Made by a program: the position numbers and the translations under genes
Notes under the pieces: generated by a model
Databases searched by the model: none
Told to the model about the DNA's origin: nothing
Seen by the model: the letters and a program-made list of their open reading frames with translations, nothing else
NCBI RefSeq assembly: GCF_003018115.1
Contig: NZ_CP027457.1
Strand: one strand, 5' to 3'
From: Escherichia coli
GTDB taxonomy: Bacteria; Pseudomonadota; Gammaproteobacteria; Enterobacterales; Enterobacteriaceae
Length of the DNA: 64,000 bases
Shown: positions 2,681-64,000 of the stretch, one piece after another
Numbering within the stretch: position 1 is the first letter of the stretch
How the letters are laid out: the number at the start of each line of letters is the position of its first letter

Positions 2681-2687
2681 ATGATAT

Positions 2688-7140: not shown

Positions 7141-11323
<4,183 letters not shown>

Positions 11324-11604: not shown

Positions 11605-12762
11605 ATGAATCCAGTACCCGCGCAACGTGAATATTTCCTCGACTCCATCCGCGCCTGGCTGATGTTGTTAGGGATCCCTTTTCATATTTCTTTAATCTAT
11701 TCGAGCCATACATGGCATGTGAATAGCGCCGAACCGTCATTGTGGCTGACCCTTTTTAATGACTTCATCCACTCGTTCCGCATGCAGGTATTTTTCGTTA
11801 TATCCGGCTACTTTTCCTACATGCTTTTTTTACGCTATCCCTTGAAAAAATGGTGGAAAGTACGTGTCGAACGTGTAGGTATCCCGATGTTAACAGCCAT
11901 CCCCCTACTGACATTGCCGCAATTTATTATGCTGCAATACGTCAAAGGGAAAGCGGAAAGTTGGCCTGGACTGTCATTGTATGACAAATATAATACGTTG
12001 GCCTGGGAATTAATATCGCACCTGTGGTTTTTATTGGTGTTAGTGGTCATGACGACGCTGTGCGTCTGGATATTCAAACGCATCAGAAATAATTTAGAAA
12101 ATTCTGATAAAACGAATAAAAAATTCTCGATGGTAAAACTATCGGTGATTTTTTTGTGCCTCGGCATCGGCTATGCGGTAATAAGAAGAACGATTTTTAT
12201 TGTGTATCCGCCCATTCTGAGTAACGGCATGTTCAATTTTATTGTCATGCAAACGCTATTTTATTTGCCGTTCTTTATCCTCGGCGCACTGGCTTTCATT
12301 TTCCCTCATCTTAAAGCCTTGTTTACCACGCCGTCTCGTGGCTGTACCCTCGCAGCAGCATTGGCATTTGTCGCTTACTTACTCAACCAGCGCTATGGCA
12401 GTGGCGATGCCTGGATGTACGAAACCGAGTCTGTGATCACCATGGTCCTCGGTCTGTGGATGGTGAATGTGGTCTTCTCCTTCGGCCACCGTTTGCTTAA
12501 CTTCCAGTCAGCGCGGGTGACTTACTTTGTTAACGCATCGCTATTTATCTATCTGGTTCACCACCCGTTAACGCTGTTTTTCGGCGCGTACATTACACCG
12601 CACATCACCTCCAACTGGCTTGGTTTTCTCTGTGGCCTGATATTCGTAGTAGGGATTGCGATAATTCTGTATGAAATTCATTTACGCATCCCATTACTGA
12701 AGTTTTTGTTCTCTGGTAAACCGGTTGTTAAGCGTGAGAACGATAAAGCACCAGCCCGTTAA
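11605..12762 (+). CDS. opgC: glucan succinyltransferase (acyltransferase family membrane protein)
   Basis: 385 aa multi-TM protein divergent from opgGH. Confidence 0.88.
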
Positions 12763-12769
12763 GCCGCGT

Positions 12770-14200: not shown

Positions 14201-14726
14201 CTCCTTGTTGGGTAAGGAGTCTTTCGTAGAGGTGGGCGTTTTCTTCATCATAACAGACAAAGTATACCTGTTCGGGTAAAGCGTGACGGGTAATAAATTC
14301 TGAAACGGTTTTAACTGCGATTTCAGCCGCTGCCGCACGAGGGTAACCATAAACCCCAGTACTGATTGCAGGAAAAGCCACTGACGTATAGCTGTTTGCC
14401 GCCACCAGTCGCAGGCTATTCAGATAGGCATCCTGCAAAAGCTGGTCTTCGTTTTGTTCACCACCACGCCAGACTGGCCCGACGGTGTGTACTACGGCTT
14501 TAGCGGGAAGATCGCCTGCAAGCGTAATAACGGCATGCCCCGTAGGGCAATCGCCCTGCTGTTGCCTGACTTTTAAACAGGCATCCAGCAGGGCCGGACC
14601 CGCTGCGCGATGAATGGCCCCATCGACGCCGCCGCCTCCCATTAATGACGGATTAGCCGCATTCACAATCACATCAACGGCCAGTTTGGTAATATCACCC
14701 TGCACAACATGAATACGCGTTTTCAT
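14193..14726 (-). CDS. ymdB: macrodomain O-acetyl-ADP-ribose deacetylase
   Basis: 177 aa macrodomain ([23 protein letters not shown]). Confidence 0.9.
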
Positions 14727-14820
14727 AACGCCTCCTTACACCTTCTTGTTTCTTAAGTGTACAGCAGGCTTTTTGGTTAAATCGCATTTTTCTGCTCAGC
14801 AACGTGCGTTGTTCAGAAAC

Positions 14821-15585
<765 letters not shown>

Positions 15586-50100: not shown

Positions 50101-50285
50101 GCCACGACGAGGTACTGGCGACCCGCATAGATACGACGATTCGCTATACCAAAAGGGCAGAGTGGATTGGCGATCGTTTTAAAGAACGGGAAATTGCCAA
50201 CGCATTACGTGAAGAGACCGCCAGCTATAATATTGATATTGATGAGGTGATAGCGCTTGCCCGTCAGCAGAAGGAATATCACTGA
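47190..50285 (+). CDS. hsdR: type I R-M restriction endonuclease/translocase subunit
   Basis: 1031 aa from TTG 47190 with AAGGAG RBS; PD-(D/E)xK region then SF2 helicase motifs (TQGSGKS, DECHRTQ). Confidence 0.9.
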   Translation: MSTVGQRERATQQRLIQFFVEDLGYRHLSHRTGYTGNSNIDTNILSAWLKRRGVNDTLITRALRQLDSAAALGEGKKLYYANKEVYRLLRYGVKDKEGAGEQNQTVWLIDWANPQANDFAIADEVTVKGEYCKRPDLVLYVNGIALGVIELKRSSVHVSEGIRQNLDNQKKTFIRDFFTTMQLVMAGNDTQGLRYGTIETPEKYYLEWKEDNPGDYTHKLDFHLSRLCSKSRLLDIVHNYIAFDVGVKKLCRHNQFFGVEAAKQHIARREGGIIWHTQGSGKSLTMVWLAKWIRENVPNSRVLIVTDRTELDEQIESVFMGVNEDIYRTSSGNDLIATLNHPNPWLICSLVHKFGRRSEAEDNAATDAFITELQQSLTKTFRAKGDLFVFVDECHRTQSGKLHNAMTAILPDALFIGFTGTPLMKKDKKKSVEVFGPYIHTYKFDEAVADGVVLDLRYEARDIDQYLTSEKKVDDWFEAKTRGLSNLARTQLKQKWGSMQKLLSSKSRLEQIVNDILLDMDTRPRLMDGRGNAMLVCSSIYQACKVYEMFSQTELAGKVAIVTSYRPDAASIKGEETGEGLTEKLSKHATYRKMLADYFEQSEEKAAARITEFEREVKQRFIEEPGQMRLLIVVDKLLTGFDAPSATYLYIDKTMTDHTLFQAICRVNRLDGEDKEYGYIIDYKDLFRSLDKAITDYTTGAFDDYDRDDVAGLLKDRLEQAQLDLDSALEMVRSLCEPVKTPRSLQDYQHYFCGESGENQTSLNEKEALRLTFYQCVARLLRAYASIANEMPEAGYTAEEVESIRAEVAEFEKLRYEIKLTSGDLLDMKRFEPAMRHLLDMYVRADDSEVLMDFEELSLIELIVEKGLAATVALPDDIRNNQDAMAETIENNVRKTIVDENPVNPKYYGRMSQLLDELITLRRQNALNYQQYLERIRDLCKQVIRPEQTAGACYPATMDTQAKRAFYDNFGHDEVLATRIDTTIRYTKRAEWIGDRFKEREIANALREETASYNIDIDEVIALARQQKEYH

Positions 50286-51001
50286 TGCCAATCATGCAAA
50301 TAGGCTCGTTACACTTGCTGGTCAACCGTAAGGCGATTAAGAATCTGCATATCAGCGTGCTGCCGCCTGATGGCAAAGTCCGCGTTTCAGCGCCGGAACA
50401 TATGACGGAGACGGCGATTCGTATGGCGGTTGCTTCACGCTTTCGCTGGATCAGAAAACAGCAGCAGGATTTCGCCAGACAGCCTCGTCAATCAGAGAGG
50501 GAAATGGTCAGCGGAGAGTGCCACTATCTTTGGGGCCGAAGATATCGCCTACTTGTGATTGAGCGTCACGGGCGTCACGAAGTAAAAGTTGCGGGAAATA
50601 ATAAGCTCCAGCTTTATGTTCAACCGGGAACCCGTGATGAAAATAAGGCATTGGCGTTAAGTGAATTTTATCGACATGAACTAAAACAGCAGGTGGCTAA
50701 GCTTCTACCTGAATGGCAGGACCGAATCGGTGTTCCCCTAACATTCTGGGGCATCAAAAAGATGAAAACCTTTTGGGGCACCTGTAACACTACAACAAAA
50801 CGAATCTGGCTCAATCTGGAGCTAATTAAGAAGCCGCCGGAGTGTCTGGAGTATATTCTGGTGCATGAACTGGTTCATCTTCTGGAACGTCACCATAATG
50901 CTCGCTTCCGGTTGCATATGGATCGGTTTATTCCTGACTGGCGTGAGCGTCGGGATTTGTTAAATAATATGCCGTTAGCGTTTGAGGCATGGGAGTATTG
51001 A
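50285..51001 (+). CDS. YgjP-like (DUF45/M48-type) zinc metallopeptidase
   Basis: 238 aa; HExxH in HELVHLLERHH; ATG overlaps hsdR stop (TGATG). Confidence 0.75.
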   Translation: MPIMQIGSLHLLVNRKAIKNLHISVLPPDGKVRVSAPEHMTETAIRMAVASRFRWIRKQQQDFARQPRQSEREMVSGECHYLWGRRYRLLVIERHGRHEVKVAGNNKLQLYVQPGTRDENKALALSEFYRHELKQQVAKLLPEWQDRIGVPLTFWGIKKMKTFWGTCNTTTKRIWLNLELIKKPPECLEYILVHELVHLLERHHNARFRLHMDRFIPDWRERRDLLNNMPLAFEAWEY

Positions 51002-51103
51002 TTGAGCCTGTAACTGTTTTTTGTCCATAAATTAACCTTCATTTGATGCTGGATTGAACATATCAAAATCAGACAATTACACAAATCTATGTACAGGCTC
51101 AAC

Positions 51104-51168
51104 TCCTGCCATGGAACGTAGTACTCACCAATAAGTAAGCATCAATACGGCGCTCCGTTAACGCTTAC
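51104..51168 (+). mobile_element. IS66-family right-end fragment
   Basis: About 65 bp near-identical to the last 65 bp of the complete IS66 copy (53833-53897), including end of tnpC coding sequence and terminal repeat, same orientation. Confidence 0.5.
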
Positions 51169-51452
51169 TAGCATGGTTATCTCCTTAAAAAATTGAGGCG
51201 ACAACTATGCTGACACAGGGGGTTACTCACCGATCTCCTTCACGGTAATACGCAGTTCTTCAGAACCCGCCTCCGATACCAGCCTGGCGGTCGCCCCGGC
51301 GCAACAGAATAAATCAACCATCGTCAGACTGCGATCATTCGTAATGTTCCGGGGACCTCATCTTCAGTAAGCGTAAACTGACCGCCGTATGTAGCCATTA
51401 AGCCAGTATTGGTAACGTAGGTGCCCACCTTTTCAACTAGTGGACACCTGTT

Positions 51453-51878
51453 ATGGAACAGAAAATATTATCCTCAGAACCCCGCAGATCATTTTCAAAT
51501 GAGTTTAAACTTCAAATGGTTAAACTGGCTTCACAACCAGGAGCCTCTGTTGCCCGTATTGCCCGGGAACACGATATCAATGATAACCTCCTGTTCAAAT
51601 GGCTCAGGCTCTGGCAGAACGAAGGGCGTATATCGCGGCGTCTTCCGGTAACAATCTCTTCTGGCGCTGGCGTTGAATTATTACCTGTTGAGATAACGCC
51701 TGATGAGCAGAAAGAGCCTATGGCGGCTCTTACTCCGCTTTTATCCACTCCTTCACAAAGCACAGTCAGTGCCAGTTCCTGTAAAGTTGAGTTCCGCCAC
51801 GGTAACATGACGCTGGAAAATCCTTCACCAGAGCTGCTCACGGTGTTGATCCGTGAACTGACCGGGAGGGGACGATGA
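51453..51878 (+). CDS. IS66 accessory protein TnpA (orf1)
   Basis: 141 aa (MEQKILSSEPRRSFSNEFKLQMVKLA...). Confidence 0.8.
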   Translation: MEQKILSSEPRRSFSNEFKLQMVKLASQPGASVARIAREHDINDNLLFKWLRLWQNEGRISRRLPVTISSGAGVELLPVEITPDEQKEPMAALTPLLSTPSQSTVSASSCKVEFRHGNMTLENPSPELLTVLIRELTGRGR

Positions 51879-52225
51879 TCTCGCTCCCATCAGGTACCCG
51901 TATCTGGCTCGTTGCCGGCGTTACCGATATGCGTAAATCCTTCAACGGACTGGGAGAACAGGTACAACATGTGCTGAATGATAATCCCTTCTCCGGTCAC
52001 CTGTTTATCTTCCGTGGCCGACGGGGTGACACCGTCAAAATTCTTTGGGCTGATGCTGATGGTCTGTGCCTGTTCACCAAACGCCTGGAGGAAGGCCAGT
52101 TTATCTGGCCTGCGGTACGTGACGGCAAGGTATCCATTACCCGCTCGCAACTGGCAATGCTCCTCGATAAGCTGGACTGGCGTCAGCCAAAAACATCCAG
52201 CCGTAACTCACTGACAATGTTGTAA
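51875..52225 (+). CDS. IS66 accessory protein TnpB (orf2)
   Basis: 116 aa, ATGA overlap with tnpA. Confidence 0.85.
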   Translation: MISLPSGTRIWLVAGVTDMRKSFNGLGEQVQHVLNDNPFSGHLFIFRGRRGDTVKILWADADGLCLFTKRLEEGQFIWPAVRDGKVSITRSQLAMLLDKLDWRQPKTSSRNSLTML

Positions 52226-52255
52226 AAAACTCCTGACCGCATTATAAAAACGGTC

Positions 52256-53869
52256 ATGAGTCAGAAATACCTCATTCGCATCGCAGAGCTGGAAAGATTG
52301 CTCTCTGAGCAGGCTGAAGCCCTCCGTCAGAAAGACCAGCAACTGAGTCTGGTTGAAGAGACGGAAGCCTTCCTGCGCTCTGCACTGACACGTGCCGAAG
52401 AAAAGATCGAAGAAGATGAACGGGAAATAGAACATCTGCGGGCTCAGATAGAAAAACTGCGCCGGATGCTGTTCGGTACCCGTTCTGAAAAACTGCGTCG
52501 TGAAGTTGAACTGGCTGAGGCTCTGCTGAAACAACGTGAACAGGACAGCGATCGTTACAGTGGGCGGGAAGACGATCCTCAGGTTCCCCGCCAGTTGCGA
52601 CAGTCGCGCCATCGTCGTCCGTTACCGGCACACCTTCCCCGTGAAATACACCGCCTGGAGCCAGAAGAAAGCTGTTGCCCGGAGTGTGGCGGTGAACTGG
52701 ATTATCTGGGGGAAGTCAGCGCTGAACAGCTGGAACTGGTGAGCAGTGCCCTGAAAGTGATCCGCACAGAACGGGTAAAAAAAGCCTGTACAAAATGTGA
52801 CTGTATTGTTGAAGCACCGGCGCCGTCCCGCCCGATAGAGCGTGGTATCGCGGGCCCCGGATTACTTGCCCGCGTGTTAACGGGAAAATACTGCGAACAT
52901 CTGCCACTGTATCGTCAGAGTGAAATCTTTGCCCGCCAGGGTGTCGAACTGAGCCGGGCCTTACTCTCCAACTGGGTTGACGCGTGCTGCCAGTTAATGA
53001 CACCGGTGAATGATACCCTGTACCGTTATGTAATGAACACCCGCAAGGTTCACACTGATGACACACCGGTAAAGGTACTGGCACCGGGTCAGAAAAAGGC
53101 GAAAACAGGGCGTATCTGGACGTATGTCCGGGATGATCGCAATGTGGGTTCGTCATCTCCTCCAGCGGTCTGGTTCGCGTACTCGCCGAACCGGCAGGGG
53201 AAACACCCGGAGCAACACCTCCGCCCCTTCCGGGGTATCCTGCAGGCGGATGCGTTCACAGGTTACGACAGGTTGTTCAGTGCAGAACGTGAAGGTGGTG
53301 CACTGACAGAAGTTGCGTGCTGGGCCCATGCCCGGCGAAAAATCCACGATGTATACATCAGCAGCAAAAGTGCGACGGCAGAAGAAGCCCTGAAGCGAAT
53401 CAGTGAACTGTACGCCATCGAGGATGAAATACGGGGATTACCGGAGTCAGAGCGTCTTGCCGTCAGGCAGCAGCGAAGCAAAGTGTTACTGACGTCGCTG
53501 CATGAATGGATGGTGGAGAAGAATGGTACGCTGTCGAAAAAATCCAGACTGGGCGAAGCGTTCAGCTATGTACTGAATCAGTGGGATGCCCTCTGTTATT
53601 ACAGTGATGACGGTCTGGCGGAGGCGGATAATAATGCTGCGGAAAGAGCGCTTCGTGCAGTCTGTCTCGGAAAGAAAAACTTTATGTTCTTTGGCAGCGA
53701 TCACGGCGGCGAGCGTGGAGCACTGTTGTACGGGCTGATCGGCACCTGCCGTCTGAACGGTATCGATCCGGAAGCGTATCTGCGCCATATCCTGAGCGTA
53801 CTGCCGGAATGGCCTTCCAACCGAGTTGATGAACTCCTGCCATGGAACGTAGTACTCACCAATAAATAA
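52256..53869 (+). CDS. IS66-family transposase TnpC
   Basis: 537 aa with N-terminal coiled coil, CxxC zinc motif (CPECGG) and DDE core. Confidence 0.9.
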   Translation: MSQKYLIRIAELERLLSEQAEALRQKDQQLSLVEETEAFLRSALTRAEEKIEEDEREIEHLRAQIEKLRRMLFGTRSEKLRREVELAEALLKQREQDSDRYSGREDDPQVPRQLRQSRHRRPLPAHLPREIHRLEPEESCCPECGGELDYLGEVSAEQLELVSSALKVIRTERVKKACTKCDCIVEAPAPSRPIERGIAGPGLLARVLTGKYCEHLPLYRQSEIFARQGVELSRALLSNWVDACCQLMTPVNDTLYRYVMNTRKVHTDDTPVKVLAPGQKKAKTGRIWTYVRDDRNVGSSSPPAVWFAYSPNRQGKHPEQHLRPFRGILQADAFTGYDRLFSAEREGGALTEVACWAHARRKIHDVYISSKSATAEEALKRISELYAIEDEIRGLPESERLAVRQQRSKVLLTSLHEWMVEKNGTLSKKSRLGEAFSYVLNQWDALCYYSDDGLAEADNNAAERALRAVCLGKKNFMFFGSDHGGERGALLYGLIGTCRLNGIDPEAYLRHILSVLPEWPSNRVDELLPWNVVLTNK

Positions 53870-53909
53870 GCGTCAATACGGTGCTCCGTTGACGCTTACA
53901 GCTTTCCCA

Positions 53910-54284
53910 CTATTTCTTGATTCCTAAACGGAACATATCAGTTGGGAATAAAGGTTGTATTATCACTTCATCATTAAAAATGAATAATTTGGGCGATAAA
54001 GCTGTTACGTCATAGATATTTTCAGCGATTAATCTTAGATTTGACCTAAAAACTGGAATACTTGCATCATCTGCAAAGACAAACATGTCATCGTTTTTTA
54101 CAGAGTTTGCACACAATAGCTCATCAAAACTCTCATAATCAGAATGCCAGATCTCTGACCAAGTAACACTTCCTTTCGCGAGAGGGTACTTATTTAAAAT
54201 GCCCAGAGCCTCCTGCTGAGCCAGCCCCTCTACTATATTAAAATCAGCACTCAGTGCTTCCCGACACTCATCAAATAAAGTCAT
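53910..54284 (-). CDS. putative immunity protein of orphan toxin module
   Basis: 124 aa acidic protein immediately downstream of the orphan CdiA-CT. Confidence 0.5.
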   Translation of the reverse strand: MTLFDECREALSADFNIVEGLAQQEALGILNKYPLAKGSVTWSEIWHSDYESFDELLCANSVKNDDMFVFADDASIPVFRSNLRLIAENIYDVTALSPKLFIFNDEVIIQPLFPTDMFRLGIKK

Positions 54285-54289
54285 TTGCT

Positions 54290-55700
54290 CTACCTGTTTA
54301 GCTGTTTCAATATTGTTTCAAAAGACTTTTCATTGCCTTCAAAAGGTATGACTTGCTTCACCGCTTTTCCAGGGCCTTTACCCTGCGAGTAATCCCATAT
54401 ATTGATGTGTGTGCCTTTTTCAGGATCATAATCAACACGCCAACCAACTTTTCCGTCGCTGGATTGCCGCCCTATGACTTTCCCATTACCAGCGCTGACT
54501 TCCAAACGTCCGATAACTGGCTTAGAGTCCGCTCCTAAATTACCTACAAGATCCAATGCCTTGTTTCGAGCAGTTTCCCAGTTTTTCTCTGGCTTGAGGA
54601 TTTGTTCAATTTTAGGCTGGGAATTCCCTTTAACCTTACTAATTCCCCCAAATGCTGACGCCGCAGCGCTCGCGACTATTCCCGCCTGAACTTCATCCAA
54701 ACCGTATTCTTCTTGGAGTGCTTCCGAGACTTTGTTGGTCGCGACAACCCCTTCAGCCTGCATTTGCTGCGCAAAAGTCGCCGTCAGATCGTAGACCATT
54801 TTGATCGGGATATCTTCACCCAGAGCACGATCTATTGCCTGCTTCACCGCCAGACTGTCAGTCAGTACATCACCGTATTTCTGCTGGCAGGTTGCCGGGC
54901 TGGCTGCACAGTCACTGATCAGTTGCTTTTGCTGTGCCGTACTCAACTCTTCGTACTTTTTGATAATACCGCCGCAGTCACCGCCTTTCGCCTGACAGGA
55001 CTTCATTTCAGCGGACCAAGCATCTATCTGCTTACTGCTCAGATAGTTATTCTCAACAGCATTCTTCCCGCTTTGTGCTCCCACTGCTGCTGATGCGGTG
55101 CTGTTTCCGGTAAGACCTCCGGCCAGCCCTGCTGACACGGTTGCCAGCGTACTTATCGTTTGCTTCTGCTCTTCACTGAGGTCTGACTGTTTCACGCCCG
55201 GATACAGCATGCCGGCAATCGCTCTGACTGCCAGCTCTCCCGTTGCTGCGCCTGCTGCACCGGCAGCAACATTATTACCCTGCATTGCCGCCACTGCGCC
55301 GCCCAAAATGGCGTGAGCAATGGCGTTTACTGCCGGGTCTTTTTCTGTTGATTTCAGCAGGTGCGCCAGTTCCGGAGCCGAAGTTCCGGCCAGAGCACCC
55401 GCTAAATTACCCCCCGCCAGCCCCTGAAGCGCGGCCTGGATACCCCGCTGAATTTCACTGCCGGTACCATACTTCGCCATTTCATCCCTGTAAGCCTGCG
55501 TGTCACGCAGTTTTGCCAGATATGCCTGCCGCTGCTCTTCCGTCGCATCCGCCGGAACAGGCCCATATTTATCCTGCGCAGCCTTCAACGCATTCAGTTC
55601 CCCCTGCGTCCGCGCAATATCAGCCACCTGACTGCCTATGTCACTGATAAGCCCCACTGTCTGCAGACGCTGCTGCTCTTTTTCCTTGTCAAAGATGGAA
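54290..55700 (-). other. orphan cdiA-CT fragment (pre-VENN region plus toxin domain), no start codon of its own
   Basis: VENN motif ([13 protein letters not shown]) about 200 aa into track ORF 54290-55657; frame open to about 55736; upstream part homologous to cdiA pre-VENN sequence. Confidence 0.65.
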
Positions 55701-55742
55701 AAGCAAAAAAACCAGCCAACTGAACTAGCTGGTAGTTAAAGT

Positions 55743-56006
55743 CTATTTGATTTTGCTTAAAATATTATTGACTATCGGTATTACAGAACTAACCAATTGC
55801 TCTTCCTCAACTGTATACAAAAGCAATTCGATCTCATTCTCCGCATTAAATAACATTGTATGGAGCCACTTTTCCTCAACAGCAACAATTTGGCTTTCCG
55901 CAGCATAAATTTCTGATTGAATACTTTGTACCGTTATTTTCCCTTCAAGAAAGTTTTTACAAGAGTGTTGTAACCTCTCGATCACCTCAGGATAAATCCA
56001 ACTCAT
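55743..56006 (-). CDS. putative immunity protein
   Basis: 87 aa; ATGA overlap with upstream toxin-like ORF. Confidence 0.45.
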   Translation of the reverse strand: MSWIYPEVIERLQHSCKNFLEGKITVQSIQSEIYAAESQIVAVEEKWLHTMLFNAENEIELLLYTVEEEQLVSSVIPIVNNILSKIK

Positions 56007-56719
56007 TGCCCACTCCTGCGAAGAATAGTAACAATAATATTACTGTTATTTTCAGTGACTACACCTACGTCACCACTCCAATAAGTCGTTCTAGTTACGC
56101 CATTAACGACACTATTTTGAGGAGTTCCTTCTTTGATAACACTTTCAACCATATTCGGCGTTATATTTCTCCCTGGGCCAACTGTGCCGGCTGGAGAACC
56201 AGATGGCTGCATTCTATCAACAGCATGTTGTGAATACAAACGATGACCTATTTGTGCATATTGTCGCCCATCTACTGTAACCTTTCGATAATTTTGCCAA
56301 GAGTCCCAAGGTAACTTTTCAGAACTATTAGGTACGTTTTCTGATGAGGTTTTCTCATTACGTTGCTCTATTGATTCATTATTCCTGGCGTTCTCCTCAT
56401 CCTGCGGCTCCCATCCCCCCGGTGTTCCAGCACCTGCGCCACCAAGCTCAGCTTTCTCCTTGTCCGTAGCGCTCGCTACGTCTTTGCCCAGATTCGGCTG
56501 TTTGTTTTCGTCTGTATTGTCGCCATTCAGCACATACCCCGGCCCCCGGGCACCATCGCGACTCGGATCACGTACAGCACACTGTTCCCGTGAGCCTTCA
56601 CAACCACCACCGGTATCCCAGCTATTATCATTCCCGGTATCCTTACTGGCATTACCTGTAGCACCAGCTATTGCTGCTGCCGTATTAGCTGCTGTTTCAG
56701 TGGCTATCACGTTCAGCAT
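56003..56719 (-). CDS. putative orphan polymorphic-toxin C-terminal module (no VENN recognised)
   Basis: 238 aa; low-complexity N-terminal half and compact C-terminal domain (VDGRQYAQIGHRLYSQHAVDRM...). Confidence 0.4.
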   Translation of the reverse strand: MLNVIATETAANTAAAIAGATGNASKDTGNDNSWDTGGGCEGSREQCAVRDPSRDGARGPGYVLNGDNTDENKQPNLGKDVASATDKEKAELGGAGAGTPGGWEPQDEENARNNESIEQRNEKTSSENVPNSSEKLPWDSWQNYRKVTVDGRQYAQIGHRLYSQHAVDRMQPSGSPAGTVGPGRNITPNMVESVIKEGTPQNSVVNGVTRTTYWSGDVGVVTENNSNIIVTILRRSGQ

Positions 56720-56736
56720 ATTGTTTTCAGCAACAA

Positions 56737-56955
56737 CTATTTACGATAGTATCTTCGCATTTGTAGATAGAGTTGTAACCAAATCCCAGCACCTCCCCAT
56801 AAGCCAACTACTGCGCCAATTATTCCGTATTTTACATACACCTCAGAAGGTATTGGTTCCCGAGCTATAAGCCAGATACTAACCACTATTCCAATAGAGC
56901 AAGTAGCTATAGATATAAGTAACAACTTAATAAGAAGTAGTAGATGTTTTTTCAT
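56737..56955 (-). CDS. small inner-membrane immunity protein
   Basis: 72 aa, two hydrophobic helices; start overlaps upstream toxin stop. Confidence 0.55.
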   Translation of the reverse strand: MKKHLLLLIKLLLISIATCSIGIVVSIWLIAREPIPSEVYVKYGIIGAVVGLWGGAGIWLQLYLQMRRYYRK

Positions 56956-57870
56956 TTTTTGTCTCCATCAACTTCTTTTTGCGTTGCGCTGCTTGCACCT
57001 TCTGATACGAATGAACCAACAAATCCACCAAATGTTCCTGGTATAGAGCTCATTTGGCCGCCTTGATACATACCGTATCCGATAGACTTTTCCGAATATT
57101 GCAGTGAATATTTACTGGCGTCCATTCCCAGTTGATTTTTGATGTATTGAGCTTCTAACTTATTAGTAATTGAAGCCCCAATGTTATAGCCAAGGCCTGT
57201 ACCAGCCATGCTACCCACTACTGATGCGGTACTGTCCTGGCCTTCAATCTGGCTGCTCATGTAAGCGCTACCGGCACCCAACAACTGATTAGCGTAATAT
57301 CCTTTCCCGGCTGTACCTACACCAGTCAAGCCTGACATCATGAAACTGAGATAATCGAACTTATCACCGATATTTCCCGTACCAATTTGTACCGCACCAT
57401 TAGCCCCATAGCTCAGCCCGGCACTGACAAATTTTTCAGTCAGCGTGGCTGATGATGTTAACAATGAACCCGCTCCGGCAACCGTACCCCAGTAATTTTC
57501 CGGTTCCCCGAAGAAAGCCAGAGCCTTATCACCTTTCGATGTGTTGTTGTTCAGATAGTTCAGGTCATAGCTGTTACTTTCAGTGACGTAGTTCTTCACG
57601 TCCTGGTTTTCCAGCGAACCATACAACCAGCCAGGCCGACCTGCCGCGCTGAGTCCGCCCTCAATATTCCATTTATCTTCCCCGGACAGAGCCGTCAGAG
57701 GATCTGTGGCCACATCAATGTGTAATTTCTGTCGGTGCTCTGCGCTTATTACAGCATATTTATTCTGAATATCGCCGCAGTCTCCACCCACTTTACGACA
57801 GGCCGTCATTTCTCTGTCAAAAGCATGCGCCTCGTCGTAGCTGAGGTAGTTATTCTCAACAACAACTCTT
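56952..57870 (-). other. orphan cdiA-CT, glycine-zipper membrane toxin (EC93-type ionophore-like)
   Basis: Frame upstream of track ORF 56952-57809 reads ...SERVVVENNYLSYDEAHAFDREMTACRK... (VENN at about 57850); C-terminal domain rich in GxxxG motifs. Confidence 0.6.
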
Positions 57871-57960
57871 TCCGACGTAAGTTGCTGCGATGAACCCTAT
57901 TTTCTCCTTGCCTTTCCGTGAATTACAACCGTTTTCCCCTGCTGTACTTCCTGCCTGCCA
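57840..57960. repeat. repeated linker (VENN-encoding segment plus upstream about 90 bp), copy A
   Basis: Near-identical to 59207-59325 (…gagttattctcaacaacaactctttccgac[g/a]taagttgctgcgatgaaccc…). Confidence 0.5.
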
Positions 57961-58173
57961 ACTTTTTGCCCCGACGCGCCTTTTTCGTCTGAACACGCTA
58001 CCGCCCCGGTGAAAAGTCCACCGAGTAAATAGCCTGCGGCTATTTAACATAACGCGCGGGAATTATGCGCAGTTCAGGAGGCCGAACCACGCATAATCAG
58101 CGTTATGTCTTGCGCCCTTCAGAAGCCTGCGATAGTGCAGGCTGACAGTCAGGAGACCCAGACGGTTAAGATA

Positions 58174-58467
58174 TTAACTGTCGGGCTCTCCTTTTTTATT
58201 ATTTTTATAATCAATCATCAAGTTATTCACCTCATTCCATAGTTGCTCATCGTTAAATTCGTATTCTTCACGATCATTATCTGGGTTGTACATATCAGCC
58301 ACACAGAAGACACTGGATAATAATTCACTTAGATTATCATTATCTTGCTTAAGTAGGTTACTATCACGCTCACCCTTCCACTTCGCCATATAAGTGTCGG
58401 TAAAATATTCAGCCGATATATTCTTAGCAAGAAAATCATCAATGTATTTTTTAAGAGACTGACTCAT
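58174..58467 (-). CDS. putative immunity protein
   Basis: 97 aa acidic protein; start overlaps upstream orphan toxin stop. Confidence 0.5.
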   Translation of the reverse strand: MSQSLKKYIDDFLAKNISAEYFTDTYMAKWKGERDSNLLKQDNDNLSELLSSVFCVADMYNPDNDREEYEFNDEQLWNEVNNLMIDYKNNKKGEPDS

Positions 58468-59237
58468 CTTAATGTCCCGTTATTTATGAAGTTTTCATAT
58501 TGCTTCGTTTGAGGATCAAGCTTCCACCCACTAACAAAATTACCAGATTTATCAATTACAACCACATTATTAGTTTGTGGATTGAAGAACACCTTTGATT
58601 CTGGAATTAATAGGTATGTCCCATGTTCATAAGTCGTCTTATTATCTAAATGTGATTTGATGGCAGCCTGATATTCTGCAATGGTATCACTATTTTTCTT
58701 AGTTGTTATTACGCCAAAATCAGAAGCATGTTTAAATTTCTTATCTAACTGTTTTGCGCTGAAAGCGACACTATCAGAGACGATTGTAGCTCCAGCATTT
58801 GGAATTTTCTTCCCTGGAAGTATAAGGCTAGCCAGTATTCCGCCAGTTGCTTCCAGCGCAGCCTGGTTCCCTCCATACGCTTGTTTCACATTCTCTGCTA
58901 CTGCTGACCAGGTTTCACTTTGCATCAGCGCTTTAACGCTGTCTGCCACTGCCTGATTTTTACCCGCCAAATCACTCAGTGCTTTATCACAATAGCTTTC
59001 GCCGGTTGCACATGAGGCGAGCGCCATTGCCGCATCACCCACATAATCGGCTGAGCCTATTGCCGTATCACCGGAGTCAGCGATGACATTAATAATGCCG
59101 TTGGCAATAGCCGATGAGGCTCCGTCTCCCAGCTTATCCCTGACCTGTGTTTTCCACCATTCAGCACTTTGTTTGACCGATTCCCTGGCCTTATCACCCG
59201 CCAGCGAGTTATTCTCAACAACAACTCTTTCCGACAT
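58464..59237 (-). CDS. orphan cdiA-CT with its own ATG just upstream of VENN
   Basis: 257 aa starting MSERVVVENNSLAG; compact C-terminal domain. Confidence 0.6.
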   Translation of the reverse strand: MSERVVVENNSLAGDKARESVKQSAEWWKTQVRDKLGDGASSAIANGIINVIADSGDTAIGSADYVGDAAMALASCATGESYCDKALSDLAGKNQAVADSVKALMQSETWSAVAENVKQAYGGNQAALEATGGILASLILPGKKIPNAGATIVSDSVAFSAKQLDKKFKHASDFGVITTKKNSDTIAEYQAAIKSHLDNKTTYEHGTYLLIPESKVFFNPQTNNVVVIDKSGNFVSGWKLDPQTKQYENFINNGTLR

Positions 59238-59325
59238 AAGTTGCTGCGATGAACCCGGATTCTCCCTGCATTTTCCGTTAGTTACAGCCGATTTTCCCTG
59301 TTGTACTTCCTGCCCGCCAACTTTT
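59207..59325. repeat. repeated linker, copy B
   Basis: See copy A at 57840-57960. Confidence 0.5.
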
Positions 59326-59438
59326 TGTGCTGTTAAGCGTTTCTGGCCCCGCAGACGCTACCGCCCCGCCGTGACGCGCCACCATCATATAAGCAAACTA
59401 CAGCACCACTTAGGATGGTGGTGTCTTGGATTTATATT

Positions 59439-59822
59439 TCAATTAAGAAGTTCCTTTGATACGTTACCAGTATCAAAAAACTCTTTTAAGATCTTTACAA
59501 TAAGTTCACAGTCTTTTGTAAGCTGAGATTCCGGCCAGTAATCACCAAGAATCACCATTTTTGTATCAGGTTTAGATGAGTCCCAGTACGTTCTTACTTG
59601 GTATTCATCTTCAAAAATTTCACCTAATGTTATCAAGTAATAACCATTCTCCGTTCTGATCTGAAGCATTTCAGCGCTATTATCGCCACTGTTCTGTATA
59701 TCAAGAGTAAGTGTTCCTTTTTTTCCCTGAATTAGTTTAAACTGATTTAATACCATGTCCCAATTTGAGATCTGTTTATTGCCACCTGTTTCGCCCAGTG
59801 TCCAACTCACTTTAAAATTCAT
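59439..59822 (-). CDS. cdiI: CdiI immunity protein cognate to the resident CdiA-CT
   Basis: 127 aa; ATG 1 nt after cdiA stop. Confidence 0.6.
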   Translation of the reverse strand: MNFKVSWTLGETGGNKQISNWDMVLNQFKLIQGKKGTLTLDIQNSGDNSAEMLQIRTENGYYLITLGEIFEDEYQVRTYWDSSKPDTKMVILGDYWPESQLTKDCELIVKILKEFFDTGNVSKELLN

Positions 59823-59823
59823 T

Positions 59824-62800
59824 TTAATCCCTAACCTTGAGAGATTTCATGCCAGGCTGCCAGTAGAGGACTGATCCTGTAGCCTCTTCATAAATTGTTA
59901 AAGATTTTAGCCCCGCTTTATCAGCCATGGCTGCTATATCACCGCGGCAATAACCACATACAGGCTCTTTAGATACACTCATTGTCATCTCACGCCCTTG
60001 AGACATACCCTTTTCAAAAGCTTGCTGTATAACACCTACTTCAGCATGAGCTGTAGCCATATTGCCGTTAGGAAGAGGCTTGTTTTGCTTATCTATTTTA
60101 GCTTGGATTCGTCCATCAATGAGTGTTGGCTTATTCACATCTGCTAAGTTGGAAGGCCTTGCACCCTGATTAGTATCAGTAAACTTAGCTCCATCAACAT
60201 TACCTTTCGCTACGACCTTAAGATTAGCATCAACGATTTTACTTAATTGTTTTGCCGCAGCAGAACCCAAAATTGGTGTCACCGAAGCCGCAATGCTCTC
60301 CAGACCCTGCTTTGTTTCGGTGTAGCTTTCTGCGGTCTGACGATCCACCCCTTTGGTGACCATGAAATAGTTAATCATGGCGTCTTTCACCTGTTGCTGA
60401 TTCTGTGCATCAACACTGGTGATATCGAGGAGATTGACCATCTGACCATACGCATCAGCGTATTGCTGGCTGTATTTCGAGTTATAAGGGCCATCTTCGT
60501 ACCCTTCTTTCGACGCAATAACTTTCAGTCTTGCGCTGGCACACGCTGAACTACCCGCATTACCATTACCGCAGGCAGCAATAACCTCCTTATCACTGGC
60601 AATATCTTTCTCACGCAGAGCATTATATTTCTGTTGCGCCTTTTCGCGCTCTGCCGGATCTTTACTATTTTTAAGCGTCTGTTTTGCTATCTCAAGCTCT
60701 GTCTTTTCAGACACGCTAAGATAGTTATTCTCAACCGCGTTCCTGCCTGCCTGTGCCCCCGTACCGGCAGACGCCGTACTGTTGCCTGCAAGCCCGCCCG
60801 CAATACCTGAGGCAATGGTGGCCAACATGCTGATTTGCTGACGTTCCTGTTCACTCAGGTTATCAGTACGACCACCATAGTAGTTATCAATGATATACCG
60901 GGCTGCAAGTTCACCGCTGAATGCCCCTGCAGCACCGGAAGCCGCATTGTTTCCGCCCAGTTGTGCGGCAAGCGCTCCCCAGACTGCGTGAGCCATCAGG
61001 TTTGCTTCCCGGTTATCGCCGGTGGCCTGTTTTATAAGCTGTGCCACTGCCGGATTCAGACCGCCAGCCAGTATCTGCCCCGGATTCCCTGCATTCAGTC
61101 CGCCCAGCACACCCGTGATGGCCTGTACCACCATCTGCGGCGTACTGCCCGTACCGTAGCCTTTCATGACCTCTCTGTATTCCGGGGTCTCCCGCAACTG
61201 TGCATCGCTCATGCCAGGATGCTCTTTCCTGGCTGCTTTCATCGCTTCAGTTTCGCCATACGTCATGACGATGTTACTCATCTGACCGCTAATCTGGCTG
61301 ATAACCTGCGCTTCCTGCAGACGCTTCTGCTCTTTCTCCCTGTCAAATATCGGTGCAATGCTGCCGTTGGCGTTTTCCGGGTCCCGGCTGAGCCCGGCAA
61401 TATCCTGCTTCTGACTCTCATTATCACGGATAATGAGATTTCCGCCGCTGATGGCGGATGACGTGGTACCTTCAGCATGTCCACTGCTGCCGGACATACC
61501 GGTAAGTGCGTTCGCCGCACCGGCTATTGCATTTGAGGCCACCATCTGGCTGGCTGACATCCCTGAGCCACCCGATAAACTGATTCCGGTATGGCTGGCT
61601 TTATAGTCTGCCTGGTTATGGATATCCGACCAGCCCAGCGTATTGGTATTGAGGCTGTTTTTGTCATCCGTTGCCGTGGACGCAATTACCGCACCATTGA
61701 GCTGAGTGTGATTCCCAACAGTGACATCAAACCCGTCTTTTCCGGCGTAGATACCACTCTGTTCCCGGACAGAATCGTAATTGCTTTTAATTTTGTCCTG
61801 ACTGATGCTGGCATAGCCGCTGCCGGACATTGAGCCAAACGTGAAGCTTCCACCTGCAGCCACGCTGTTCTGTCTGCTGTCGTAACGGTCACTGTCCTGA
61901 AGGCTCGAAATGGTCAGGTTGTTGCCGACATCTGCTGTGACTTTCTCGCCACTGACCTGAGCCCCCGACAGGGTGGTATCACGTCCGCTTGTGAGGGAGA
62001 CATTTTTACCCGCATCCAGCGTGGTTTCGGTCCAGGTCGTGCCGTTGCCTTTCTCCCTGCCCTCTGAACCATTGATACCGGCGAAGATACTGAGGCCTCC
62101 GCCATTGGTTCCACCACCAAAGCTGACGCCCACGCCGCCACCTTTGCTGCTGTTCTTCCCGGTTGTCTGTCGGGTGTCAGCGGCGGCAGCCAGCAGAATA
62201 TCGTTCTGTGCATTCAGGCTGGTGTCATTGCCGGACTTAATCTGGCTCCCGGTAATGAGAATATCGCCGCTGTTGTTATGGTCCTTATTTTTCCCCGTGG
62301 CAGTGACAGAGACATTGTTACCGGCGCTGAGGGTTGAGCCGGAGACGATATCGTGCTGATATTTCGTCTCAGACTTCGACTGCTGATGGTTGAGCGAAAT
62401 GCTCACGCCGATACCATTATTCGGGTCAGCACTCTGTTGCTGCAGTCCGTGGTTAACACCGGCCTGTACACCAGACAGAACCGCCTGTGTTCCTTTCAGT
62501 GCCGCCAGACGGCTGTCGCTGGTTTCTTTCGCCTCCCGGGCCATGGTGGCAGCATTATTGATGGCACTGCCCACTGTGCCGGAAAGGGCAACCGTCAGCC
62601 CGCTTTTCTTCTGCTCAAATTTTTCGTCCACAGTACGACGGTCATGCCCCGGGTCAACCACCACACTGTCACCGGTAATGCTGATATCCCGGTTCGCAAT
62701 CACATCCGAACCGCTGATATGAGCCTGTTTGCCCGCGGTAATACTGACATTACCAGCAGTGGAGCCGATGGTGCTGGCACTCTGACTCTGCGTTGTCCCG

Positions 62801-64000
62801 GCCTCGCGGCGGTCGTGCGTTGTCTTACTGCTGCCAGTGGTGAAACCAATACCGCCGGTACCCGTCAGACCGGATTTCTTCGTTTCCTTAAAGCGCCAGG
62901 ACGTATCTGTACTGGTGGCAGCAAGAACATCAACATGGTTATCCGCCGCCAGTGACACATCCCAGTCAGCCACCACATCCGAACCCTGTACCGTCAGGTT
63001 ATTACCGGCGTTAACGGTCACGCGGTTTCCCGACAGCAGGGAGCCCTTCTCACGGGTGACGCTGTCTTCCGTGATGGTCCGGGTGGTCTGATGGCTGAGG
63101 AGACGGTTACGGGTTTCCCCTGATTCACTGTAGTGATAATCACTTTCCGTGGCAGTACCCAGTACGATGTCATGACCGGCATTCACACGGATATCGCCCT
63201 TTGCCGTTACAGCGGTCGCAACTGAGGTGATATCCCGTCCGGCAGTAACCGTAATGTCACCGCCACTGGTCATGTCTGTTCCCTGCTGCCGGACCGAATC
63301 ATGAACCGTCTTCATGCTGAAAGTGCTGTCGTGGTCACCTGCGCCTGTGGACTCCGCAGCCATGTTCACATCCCGTCCGGCGCGGATAGCCATACTGTTT
63401 TCAGCCGTAATACCGGCAGCCTGGCTGTTCACATCACGACCGGCGGAAAGCATCAGACTGTTCCCGGCAGTGACCGTGGGGGCCACGGCATGAGTTTCAT
63501 ACCACCCGGACCCGCCATAGCGACGACGTTCTCCGGCCTGTATCGCGTTCATGTTCAGGTCATTACCGGCGGACAGTAACACGCTGTCACCGGCAGAAAC
63601 GGCGGCACCGGTGATACTGATATCCCCGGCTGCGCCCATAAACAGTGAGTCCGTTGCCCTGACAGCAGCCAGCGGACCGGTATCCGTTCCGCTGAAATGG
63701 TTATATCCGTTGTTCATCGCCCACTGTTCTGTCCGGGTGAGGTTACTGATGTTTCCGGTGGCGCTTTCCAGGGATACGGTTTTACCGCTGATGACTGAGC
63801 TGATATTGCCGATATCCCCGATGGCCTTCAGGTTCAGTGCACCACCGGCGTTTATCAGTCCGGCATTCAGGTTGTCGATACTACCTGTGCTGTCGAGCAG
63901 GAGGTCATTCTGTGCGTTGATGCTGCCGCCGCTGTTGGTGATATTGCCACCCGCAAGCTGCACGTTGTTCCCGCTGATAACGCTGCCATTATGAAGGGTG
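59824..64000 (-). CDS. cdiA: contact-dependent inhibition toxin CdiA, 3' portion (N-terminus outside window)
   Basis: Frame open from window end to stop at 59824; filamentous-haemagglutinin-type repeats, pre-VENN region, VENN ([12 protein letters not shown], plus strand 60724-60735) and about 300-aa C-terminal toxin domain. Confidence 0.88.

Follow-up and report, generated by a model that had tools for sequence, protein, structure and literature searches.

The window, that is, the whole stretch of 64,000 nucleotides that was analyzed, contains the 3′ part of an Escherichia coli cdiA gene and its cdiI, behind which the ORF listing gives four toxin-like fragments (o1 to o4), each with a small ORF (I1 to I4). 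All genes of the array, from cdiA through I4, lie on the minus strand. The array adjoins cdiB-cdiA-cdiI on the 3′ side and on the same strand (in the RefSeq locus, which is identical, cdiB is present upstream), and is closed by an IS66-family element. The features are listed below in the direction of reading.

59824-64000, minus strand: cdiA, 3′ part; ORF that continues past the end of the window
59439-59822, minus strand: cdiI, 127 aa, gene for cognate immunity to the resident deaminase tip (Pfam DUF6911 1.8e-36; RefSeq WP_047626466.1)
59206-59388, minus strand: linker 1, a decayed leader copy (nhmmer E 2.4e-43 against the leader model)
58464-59237, minus strand: o1 toxin; VENN at 59219-59208, entry region, C-terminal colicin D-type tRNase domain
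58174-58467, minus strand: I1, o1 immunity, 97 aa; start overlaps the toxin stop (ATGA); Pfam Colicin_immun 1.7e-18
57848-58050, minus strand: linker 2, a decayed leader copy (nhmmer E 5e-46 against the leader model)
56952-57860, minus strand: o2 toxin; starts at VENN (57860-57849), entry region like that of EC869 CdiA-CT o11
56737-56955, minus strand: I2, o2 immunity candidate, 72 aa; ORF with two hydrophobic segments
56003-56740, minus strand: o3 toxin, named DUF4258 in RefSeq; the I2 stop codon is followed at once by VVAENN (56734-56720)
55743-56006, minus strand: I3, o3 immunity candidate, 87 aa; ORF
55711-55733, minus strand: intrinsic-terminator-like hairpin between I3 and the o4 stub; 10-bp stem, then TTTTTTT
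54290-55696, minus strand: o4; pretoxin region (stub of some 215 codons) up to VENN at 55057-55046, followed by a toxin of the BECR fold
53910-54284, minus strand: I4, o4 immunity, 124 aa; Pfam CdiI_ImmP 3.6e-33; PDB 5t86_I 5.5e-75
51101-53899, plus strand: IS66-family element between I4 and the M48/hsdR flank (ORFs and RefSeq annotation)

The exact VENN codons GTTGAGAATAAC occur four times in the window, always on the minus strand (60735, 59219, 57860 and 55057), against 0.01 expected by chance. Three of the four modules start at this exact sequence, the remaining one (o3) at the degenerate VVAENN; the preliminary description, according to which three modules retain VENN, was right about o1, o2 and o4, but o3 is not without a motif. 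The open frame upstream of the motif comprises 0-46 codons in o1-o3 and about 226 in o4. The toxin fragments begin at or near VENN and possess no TPS/FHA body, signal sequence or genuine translation start, which is the pattern of an orphan array, and family matches were obtained for two of the four small ORFs (I1 and I4). The earlier claim of four orphan toxin/immunity pairs behind cdiAI is borne out by these ORF pairs and agrees with the reading of Poole et al. 2011, by whom orphan cdiA-CT/cdiI arrays of this type have already been published. The complete array is present in one of 5426 complete genomes.

Resident tip and orphan modules

The resident cdiA is 99.99% identical to the cdiA of NZ_CP027310 (3225 aa). 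Its tip (60738-59824, with VENN at 60735-60724) consists of a DUF6862 cytoplasm-entry region and a Deam_C cytidine-deaminase-like toxin (Pfam DUF6862 6e-10, Deam_C 1.9e-50, MafB19-deam 1e-5), and PDB 6vek_A is matched at residues 2-167 (E 2.5e-68).

Judged by its matches to Pfam Colicin_D (PF11429, 3.5e-16) and to colicin D itself (PDB 1v74_A, 3e-29), o1 is a colicin D-type tRNase accompanied by a colicin-D-type immunity protein. The sequence of the catalytic region around the His is conserved, KKFKHA of o1 aligning with KKYKHA of colicin D, and the entry region is matched by PDB 8ssk_A. Regarding o2, the entry region corresponds to PDB 4g6u_A (residues 5-157, E 9e-13), whereas Pfam yielded a weak match alone (CdiA_helical, 0.035); the glycine-rich hydrophobic C-terminus is predicted, from its composition and the partner with two transmembrane segments, to act on the membrane. 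No CDS is annotated in RefSeq at the position in NZ_CP027310 that corresponds to I2, which accompanies o2 in other strains at 95-99.8% identity. The RefSeq label of o3 was not reproduced, as the profile runs gave no Pfam match for this toxin; a protein identical to I3 (WP_000118523.1) occurs in O157:H7 and O111:H8 arrays.

The o4 pair is, from the close matches of both partners, the toxin/immunity pair of 5T86 (PDB 5t86_A, 1.5e-65, for the toxin), a toxin of the BECR fold (bioRxiv 10.64898/2026.05.10.723254). It carries the PT-VENN domain (PF04829, 3.1e-20), for which Pfam gave no match in o1, o2 or o3, so that these three have a VENN-type motif without the domain. The o4 stub (55696-55058) resembles the resident cdiA with 48% amino acid identity (E 2e-53) and 70-72% nucleotide identity. 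Homology to cdiA ahead of VENN, which had been ascribed to three modules, was recovered for this stub alone; apart from the VENN codons, the segments upstream of o1 and o2 resemble the full 3225-aa CdiA neither as DNA nor as protein. Because a strong terminator precedes o4, expression of I4 is uncertain.

Repeated linkers and the leader family

The segments ahead of o1 and o2 are repeats of each other, with 85% identity over 121 nt (57848-57968 versus 59207-59327), extending to 163 nt at 81.6% (59368-59207 versus 58008-57848); the longest exact run is 29 nt. The repeat of about 120 bp reported earlier is thus real, but with an identity of 82-85% it is not near-identical.

Both segments belong to a leader of about 165-215 nt that is distributed across Enterobacterales. 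Where intact, it encodes a signal peptide of lipoprotein type with predicted lipidation, a spacer of about 45 codons and VVVENN, fused to varied toxins. By nhmmer, 40 copies were detected in the loci compared. The 65 protein representatives match at or near the N-terminus and are short, except for three long proteins of repetitive sequence that match in internal fragments; a PROSITE-style pattern found the full signal peptide with lipobox Cys in 17 of the 65, the Cys being kept in all 17. In Erwinia, Pantoea, Enterobacter and Cedecea the leader heads self-contained toxin cassettes, which in some loci close an HTH/primase/tyrosine-integrase/toxin-antitoxin element.

The protein alignment of the leaders, both window copies included, is free of gaps, and on this evidence the two linkers are pseudogenised copies of the conserved 5′ leader. 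In neither of them is a lipoprotein signal peptide (Met, basic n-region, h-region and lipobox Cys) preserved. Linker 1 has ATGATG at 59388, but the hydrophobic region is gone, the Cys is changed to Ser and there is a 1-nt frameshift; its in-frame relic QKVGGQEVQQGKSAVTNGKCRENPGSSQQLMSERVVVENN aligns with the intact leaders without gaps, and an ops-like GGCGGTAGCGTC is located at 59365-59354. Linker 2 retains the ancestral ATG at 58050 and a GAVAC lipobox, with a shortened and frameshifted signal peptide and an in-frame TAG, and contains a perfect ops 12-mer, GGCGGTAGCGTG, at 58005-57994 (one match in the window versus 0.05 expected). A leader copy with an intact signal peptide in E. coli GXU nonetheless has an in-frame TAG. 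Since the spacer shows no third-codon-position excess of substitutions, even among intact copies, conservation may be at the level of DNA rather than of the peptide. That the two linkers are decayed copies of a conserved lipoprotein-type leader, itself apparently undescribed, is the new point of this analysis.

Modules in other strains and history of the array

In strain GXU-23-25-310 a full-length cdiA ends in the o1 module, and a protein identical to I1 (WP_021578776.1) is encoded beside the fused gene; o2 is located under a feature annotated as cdiA in CFS3292, and o4 is fused to cdiA in EH031 and many further strains. Conversely, strain 89-3156 has the resident deaminase tip as an orphan that begins at A-VENN. 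The junctions between orphan and fused forms lie at the VENN codons in those checked. With o1, o2, o4 and the resident tip each both fused and orphan across strains, the exchange between orphan tips and the expressed cdiA tip that had been proposed is supported. By comparison, o3 was never seen fused to cdiA; the full module occurs as an orphan only, in 33 genomes.

Regarding the order of events, o4 and the 3′-terminal part of the cdiA at the same chromosomal site in EH031 are 97.2% identical; EH031 shares the M48/hsdR flank and has no IS66-family element in the corresponding intergenic space. An O111:H8 array contains o2-o3-o4 in the same order, and the homology begins exactly at the VENN of o2. 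We infer an order of acquisition from this handful of comparison genomes, in which o4, once the 3′ terminus of a cdiA that occupied this site, would form the oldest layer. It would have been displaced by an incoming cdiBA together with an o2-o3 block ending in the intrinsic terminator, and the deaminase tip with cdiI and o1 would be later additions by VENN-delimited exchange. Leader copies within arrays act as recombination handles by which modules are gained or lost; between two such copies a 7.6-kb segment is found in GXU and missing in QA-1986 630.

As the orphan toxins have no start codon, signal sequence or CdiA stalk, they would not be delivered from this strain. The immunity ORFs carry their own ribosome-binding sites and, on these sequence features, probably guard against neighbours bearing these toxins. 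The region is thus read, with high confidence, as an orphan cdiA-CT/cdiI array behind an E. coli-type CDI locus that constitutes a layered historical record rather than a ready swapping device.

Alternative explanations

The preliminary description had assigned a more immediate role to the repeats of about 120 bp, as homology arms for a RecA exchange that would place an orphan tip on the cdiA expressed by this strain. The repeats exist and tips demonstrably alternate between the orphan and the fused state among strains, but the repeats are confined to o1 and o2 and absent from cdiA, so that a crossover between them would merely delete o1/I1. Exact identity between the resident cdiA and the 5′ regions of the orphans extends over 13-17 nt at most, which we regard as well below the need of efficient RecA recombination, and the o4 stub resembles cdiA only to the extent given above; the linkers thus provide no means of loading the resident cdiA with an orphan. 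The proposed swap is unsupported and very improbable. Another reading takes the linker as the attachment site of the tyrosine recombinase of a primase/integrase element, arrays growing by site-specific addition of cassettes in the manner of integrons. It is suggested by E. coli GXU, in which a 7.6-kb CT-I-HTH-primase-integrase-TA segment, absent from QA-1986 630, lies exactly between two leader copies, and by Erwinia pyrifoliae and Enterobacter sp., in which a leader-CT-I cassette ends an HTH/primase/tyrosine-integrase/toxin-antitoxin element of the same type. However, both leader copies of GXU have the same sequence over about 135 nt, so that plain homologous recombination fits, in either direction; the tandem elements of E. 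pyrifoliae have their left junction at the 3′ end of the immunity gene instead of at a leader; no integrase is found within the window; and the leader gave no inverted-repeat or RNA/DNA structure signal (consensus fold -4.8 kcal/mol, no covariation). We give this reading little chance. It is likewise highly unlikely that translation from the ATG at 59237 yields o1 as a free protein of the cytoplasm that forms a toxin-antitoxin-like addiction pair with I1. Although o1 is an ATG-initiated ORF of 257 aa and an annotated CDS in RefSeq, and its stop overlaps the start of I1, no Shine-Dalgarno sequence precedes this ATG, and the equivalent codon is ACG in linker 2 and variable across leader copies, which marks the ATG as fortuitous within the relic.

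A regulatory function of the linkers, as RfaH-loading (ops) sites that keep the downstream immunity genes expressed, appears rather unlikely, although several observations point to it. RNA polymerase leaving cdiI would acquire RfaH at GGCGGTAGCGTG and thereby resist Rho-dependent polarity over the untranslated orphan toxin segments. The ops sequence (GGCGGTAGnnTG, non-template strand) is matched at 12 of 12 positions in linker 2 and 11 of 12 (G12C) in linker 1, both in sense orientation, and the Rfam JUMPstart consensus ends, on its 3′ side, in the same 14 nt (GGGGCGGTAGCGTG). The essential bases of ops are G4, G5, A7 and G8, and the G12C change, as in linker 1, still permits recruitment of RfaH in vitro (Zuber et al. 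2018, PMC5995543). The motif is retained in most leader copies across genera, non-coding copies included, and conservation of the spacer is at the DNA rather than the codon level. On the other hand, the ops bases also encode the G-A-V-A-C lipobox, and lipobox coding alone accounts for their conservation; some leader copies are altered at G4 or C3 (CCGTAG, TTGTAG, CAGTAG). The match to JUMPstart (Rfam RF01707) is limited to the 3′ 14 nt and, since the remainder of the element is missing from the linkers, scores 20.3 bits in the window and 14.8 bits in L002, below the gathering score of 35. The 8-mer GGCGGTAG occurs neither upstream of cdiB nor anywhere in cdiB-cdiA of the reference record, and no link between RfaH and CDI was found in the literature searched.

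Comparison with known systems

Overall, the locus is a familiar kind of system to which the leader adds a modestly interesting side lead. It shares with the orphan arrays of EC93 and EC869 (Poole et al. 2011, PMC3150448) the position after cdiBAI, the orientation, the VENN-to-VENN modules, a variable or absent cdiA stub and the presence of IS elements. In contrast to those arrays, the composition of modules is particular to this lineage and two modules are preceded by a leader relic, which is undescribed in Poole et al. 2011 (the word 'lipoprotein' occurs 0 times in PMC3150448). Displacement of C-terminal tips was described for Rhs by Jackson et al. 2009, as cited in Poole et al. 2011 (PMC3150448), and the corresponding idea for CDI is credited to Jones et al. 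2017 in PMC9086364. The roughly 215 pre-VENN codons of o4 and its match to the end of the intact EH031 cdiA are what displacement predicts; unlike in tip displacement, the displacing DNA here would be a whole cdiA of a different lineage (72-82% nucleotide identity) together with other orphans.

The ops sequence of linker 2 has the exact 12-mer GGCGGTAGCGTG and the two G residues 5′ of it in common with the RfaH ops/JUMPstart elements of LPS, capsule, hemolysin and conjugation operons, and like them is set, in sense orientation, in a long array that was acquired horizontally and is partly untranslated. It differs from them in lying inside a (former) coding leader rather than in a 5′ UTR. Like integron gene cassettes, the leader arrays are tandem promoter-less cassettes bounded by a conserved element of about 100-200 nt, with a tyrosine recombinase in some loci. 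Unlike attC, the leader has no imperfect inverted repeat or structure signal; the integrase is part of a different element, which carries a primase, and homologous recombination accounts for the sole rearrangement mapped, the 7.6-kb difference between GXU and QA-1986 630.

The SitA proteins of Myxococcus are lipoprotein toxins and follow the same leader-plus-variable-toxin plan as the leader family. The lipoprotein-reliant MafA/MafB system of Neisseria (PMC3482391) likewise combines a conserved N-terminal export leader with highly variable toxins at the C-terminus, an immunity gene following each of them. In contrast to both systems, the present leader runs into the VENN junction specific to CDI and into CdiA-type entry domains, within cdi loci, and both of its copies in the window are dead.

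Array content and organization

The window is 100% identical between 53900 and 59900 to RefSeq record NZ_CP027310 (E. coli strain 2014C-4135), which is the only one of 5426 complete genomes that contains the whole array. All cdi genes lie on the minus strand. RefSeq annotates, in order, cdiB, cdiA (3225 aa) and a DUF6911 protein, followed by colicin D-domain, colicin-immunity, hypothetical, DUF4258 and hypothetical features, a 'VENN motif pre-toxin' pseudogene, a 'CDI toxin immunity protein' and then IS66 elements. The four pairs of a toxin-like gene and a small ORF listed in the preliminary description were confirmed; they are referred to here as orphans o1 to o4 with immunity ORFs I1 to I4. 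The VENN codons GTTGAGAATAAC occur four times in the window, all on the gene strand, versus 0.01 occurrences expected by chance:

60735, minus strand, VENN codons of cdiA
59219, minus strand, VENN codons at the start of o1
57860, minus strand, VENN codons at the start of o2
55057, minus strand, VENN codons of o4

Retention of the motif in three orphans, as described previously, is thus exact for o1, o2 and o4, but the remaining orphan is not motif-less: o3 starts with VVAENN, encoded by other codons, directly after the stop codon of I2.

Comparison of 53900-64000 with itself yielded only three off-diagonal matches. One pairs the segments preceding o1 and o2, termed linker 1 and linker 2 (59368-59207 and 58008-57848; 163 nt, 81.6% identity, with a core of 121 nt at 85%); the other two pair stretches of the o4 stub with cdiA at 70-72%. 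The repeat of about 120 bp that had been called near-identical is therefore real but not near-identical, and the pre-VENN homology to cdiA ascribed to three modules is restricted to o4, whose stub matches CdiA residues 2718-2926 (48% protein identity, E 2e-53). The segments upstream of o1 and o2 did not match CdiA in any frame.

Toxin and immunity identities

For the Pfam and PDB scans, proteins were concatenated as queries and matches were assigned back via their coordinates. The resident cdiA tip starts with a DUF6862 entry region (first 166 residues matching PDB 6VEK, 2.5e-68) and its toxin domain is a cytidine deaminase of the Deam_C / MafB19-like type (1.9e-50, HAE...CGYC); the accompanying immunity protein belongs to DUF6911. 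The cdiA genes of two other strains are 96% identical to the window as far as 60359, a stretch that covers the VENN codons and an entry domain of about 125 codons, and encode a different toxin thereafter (loci compared: L003, L007 and L008). The switch places a second recombination breakpoint between the entry and toxin domains of the resident tip.

The C-terminus of o1 is about 50% identical to the tRNase domain of colicin D (3e-29), with KKFKHA aligned to KKYKHA of the colicin, and its partner is a Colicin_immun protein. In o2 the entry region resembles EC869 CdiA-CT o11 (4G6U, 9e-13), and the glycine-rich C-terminus is without family assignment. Its partner, a 72-aa ORF with two hydrophobic segments, is likely the o2 immunity protein, and the o2 toxin is predicted to act on membranes. 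This ORF (56737-56955, minus strand) has no CDS in NZ_CP027310; in the O157:H7 and O111:H8 arrays, both it and o2 are conserved. Two Pfam runs, one of them with o3 alone, yielded no match for o3, so that the DUF4258 label given in RefSeq is unconfirmed. Orphan o4 contains a PT-VENN domain (3e-20), and the C-terminal 106 residues and the partner protein correspond essentially to the two chains of PDB 5T86 (1.5e-65 and 5.5e-75), which a recent preprint lists as a BECR-fold toxin-immunity complex without a mechanistic publication (bioRxiv 10.64898/2026.05.10.723254). Neither an NCBIfam search with all ten proteins nor PADLOC on the o2 and o3 proteins yielded matches.

Comparative history of the modules

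The resident tip, o1, o2 and o4 occur in other strains in exchanged positions, and the junctions checked lie at the VENN codons. In strain 89-3156 the deaminase tip and its immunity gene form an orphan module downstream of another cdiA; the stretch homologous to the window (99.5%) begins at 60738, three bases 5' of VENN, spans linker 1 and ends just beyond the next VENN, where a different (EndoNS) toxin follows. Strain GXU-23-25-310 (hereafter GXU) has a full-length cdiA that ends in the o1 tip through an ordinary junction, and is 99.5% identical to the window over a stretch that starts at VENN, includes I1 as well as linker 2, and ends at the next VENN. An O111:H8 strain has o2, o3 and o4 in unchanged order downstream of a further cdiA, its homology to the window starting exactly at the o2 VENN, and in CFS3292 o2 lies under a feature annotated as cdiA.

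The o4 module is present in 122 genomes, in many of them as the end of cdiA. In EH031 the cdiA end is 97.2% identical to window positions 55696-53900, and next to it comes the M48 peptidase/hsdR flank (99.4%) that the window has on the far side of its IS66 insertion. From this history we read o4 as the probable remnant of a cdiA 3' end that once occupied this site. The old cdiA would have been cut at the start of the pretoxin region by the arrival of a cdiA of a different lineage (72-82% nucleotide identity) that brought orphans along. A good intrinsic-terminator hairpin (55733-55711, minus strand; 10-bp stem and T7) closes the o2-o3 block, between o3/I3 and the o4 stub, and would fit the terminus of an imported operon; because it separates o4 from o3/I3, I4 may need its own promoter. 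The pretoxin-region start seems to be a recurrent breakpoint besides VENN, since three structures coincide there: the o4 stub (starting at 55696), an Erwinia oleae protein (P0011) with a leader fused directly at this position (RDQLIGEIGSQ), and a further orphan (comparison locus L014, 634-1813).

The cdi island adjoins a type I restriction-modification cluster and an M48 peptidase gene (window 47190-51001). The same adjacency in several unrelated E. coli strains (L004, L006 and L025) suggests that the insertion site is conserved. Between I4 and this flank the window has one IS66-family element (51101-53899) with 68-nt end repeats that are 94% identical (51101-51168 and 53832-53899); three tandem copies are present in the RefSeq record (L001 18032-25772), which is identical in other respects. 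The difference suggests either IS-IS recombination or an assembly difference.

Exchange with the resident cdiA

The longest exact identities between the full cdiA and the 5' regions of o1 to o4 are 13, 14, 10 and 17 nt. In o2 and o4 the shared run is made up of the VENN codons (GTTGAGAATAAC) and 2-5 further nt; the o1 and o3 runs are short, unrelated stretches located elsewhere in cdiA. The o4 stub, at 70-72% identity, is too diverged for swapping. For RecA to recombine efficiently in E. coli, perfect identity has to extend further, over roughly 25 nt at least, so that swapping of tips onto the resident cdiA would be rare and would proceed by short-homology recombination at VENN. The two linkers have a 29-nt exact run in common, and a crossover between them only removes o1/I1. 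The role first assigned to the repeats, swapping an orphan CT onto the expressed cdiA, was not borne out, and neither was their supposed nature.

The linkers as decayed leaders

Sequence comparison identifies the repeats as remnants of a conserved leader of lipoprotein type, which elsewhere heads self-contained VENN toxin cassettes. Of 5426 E. coli genomes, 28 contain the linker, in every case flanked by an immunity gene on one side and the VENN of the following orphan on the other; an exact-pattern scan of species representatives detected it in eight other Enterobacterales. A DNA profile detected 40 leader copies in the comparison loci collected, with up to seven per array. A copy in RIT693 (Enterobacteriaceae) is in frame and reads MKRIRKALTWLLCAVMLAGVVAC-TGEKGASGKK...ERVVVENN, followed by a 210-aa toxin. 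The leader protein profile yielded 65 matches among 1.84 billion representatives. Three of these are long repetitive proteins matched internally and in fragments; all others are short and matched at or near the N-terminus. Of the 65, 17 combine a basic n-region and a hydrophobic core with a Cys-containing lipobox, canonical L-A/S-G-C variants included. Intact leaders are found in Erwinia pyrifoliae, E. oleae, Enterobacter sp., Cedecea colo, Pantoea spp. and RIT693, in proteins annotated as 'hypothetical' or 'adhesin'. Among the genes with an intact leader are those for WP_259819266 (E. pyrifoliae), WP_223540764 (Enterobacter) and MRT58241 (RIT693).

Both linkers align without gaps to intact leaders in the VENN frame, and both are dead. 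Linker 2 has kept the ancestral ATG (58050) and GAVAC, but its signal peptide is frameshifted and shortened, and a TAG stands in frame; in linker 1 the hydrophobic core is gone, Ser replaces Cys and there is a 1-nt indel. A mechanical 64-aa ORF (57856-58050, minus strand) is not a gene: it uses the ancestral leader ATG in the wrong frame, and its stop falls inside the VENN codons.

The linker was also considered as a degenerate pre-VENN stub of cdiA, and this was rejected: it lacks DNA and protein similarity to full CdiA, the leader matches (the three long repetitive proteins apart) are in short proteins at or near the N-terminus, and in the eight other species no copy lies within a long ORF. 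A structured RNA was likewise rejected, as RNAalifold gave -4.8 kcal/mol for 22 copies with no compensatory pairs; a search against Rfam returned nothing save a sub-threshold JUMPstart match. Within the leader, the spacer from lipobox to VENN has no excess of third-codon-position substitutions, even in intact copies, and for this reason no function is claimed for the spacer peptide; selection on the signal peptide seems to act at the peptide level, and the spacer seems to be conserved as DNA. In the searchable literature, which includes few subscription-journal papers, no description of the leader was found, and nothing relevant on a lipobox leader with VENN/VVVENN or on integrase/primase genes with orphan cdiA-CT.

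Association with a mobile element

The leader-toxin-immunity cassette forms the end of a recurrent unit of about 7 kb that lies immediately upstream of it and consists of an HTH gene, a CHC2/Toprim primase of about 1024 aa, a tyrosine recombinase and a ParDE/RelE-DinJ pair. Unit and cassette were seen in E. pyrifoliae, where two tandem copies of the unit lie directly 3' of cdiA-cdiI, on a plasmid-sized contig of Enterobacter and in E. coli GXU. The unit has the appearance of an integrative element whose cargo is a CDI-type toxin. Its positions in the comparison loci are:

L019 1667-14500, recurrent primase/integrase unit
L020 2625-8861, recurrent primase/integrase unit
L026 (E. coli GXU) 9871-15093, recurrent primase/integrase unit

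Between GXU and strain QA-1986 630, a 7.6-kb segment (VENN-CT-I-HTH-primase-integrase-TA) is present or absent exactly between two leader copies, of which the one adjoining the TA genes has an intact MPKKLTRLMSLLLCQVIFTGAVAC start. The comparison provides direct evidence of leader copies acting as recombination points at which modules are gained or lost; it is compatible with homologous or site-specific recombination and with insertion or deletion. In Pantoea and Erwinia (L017, L018, L019 and L021), SymE-family toxin genes lie on the opposite strand among the orphan modules, and L018 1729-1801 matches a SymR-like RNA with 37 bits, below the gathering score.

The ops motif

The lipobox DNA GGGGCGGTAGCGTG contains an exact RfaH ops 12-mer. 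Linker 2 matches at 12 of 12 positions (58005-57994), the one match in the window versus 0.05 expected; linker 1 has a G12C variant (59365-59354). The ops stretch equals the final 14 positions of the JUMPstart consensus in Rfam, the whole model scoring below threshold. Positions G4, G5, A7 and G8 of ops are essential, and a G12C variant still recruits RfaH in vitro (Zuber et al. 2018, PMC5995543). Loading of RfaH just ahead of long untranslated toxin fragments would be functionally sensible, but we consider this role unlikely: coding of G-A-V-A-C explains the motif equally well, several leader copies have disabling changes in it, and no link between RfaH and CDI was found in the searchable literature (few subscription-journal papers). 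A promoter scan found 10 sites versus 10.6 in shuffled sequence and is therefore uninformative on orphan expression.

Significance and comparison with known arrays

The leader relic could matter more than the array. We put forward, as possible rather than probable, that the leader is the 5' end of an undescribed class of self-contained CDI-type cassettes, which are carried on primase/tyrosine-integrase/TA elements and enter cdi loci, with leader DNA serving both as recombination handle and as RfaH ops antitermination site. Such a cassette would comprise a lipoprotein signal peptide, spacer, VVVENN, entry domain, toxin and downstream immunity gene; the handle would build and trim orphan arrays, and ops would keep untranslated arrays transcribed. 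The CDI questions touched are the arrival of orphan cassettes, the sharpness of their boundaries and the continued expression of immunity genes located behind long untranslated toxin fragments. They would become directly testable via the conserved leader because of its intact lipoprotein-type export signal in plant-associated Enterobacterales, the integrase/primase link and the ops motif.

The array itself adds nothing conceptually, being another case of the phenomenon reported in 2011, in a genome already annotated. It is nevertheless a clean natural example of exchange precisely at VENN codons, of an old cdiA end stranded as an orphan at the same chromosomal site, and of a DNA-deaminase-like tip that is the main weapon here and a silent orphan in another strain. 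The original reading as an orphan toxin/immunity array was right: the region is a typical orphan cdiA-CT/cdiI array of the Poole type, in kind already explained. Poole et al. 2011 (PMC3150448) described VENN-to-VENN units and orphans with and without cdiA stubs, proposed recombination and displacement models for their origin, and showed expression of the one orphan immunity gene tested, that of EC93. The history inferred for the present array agrees with their description.
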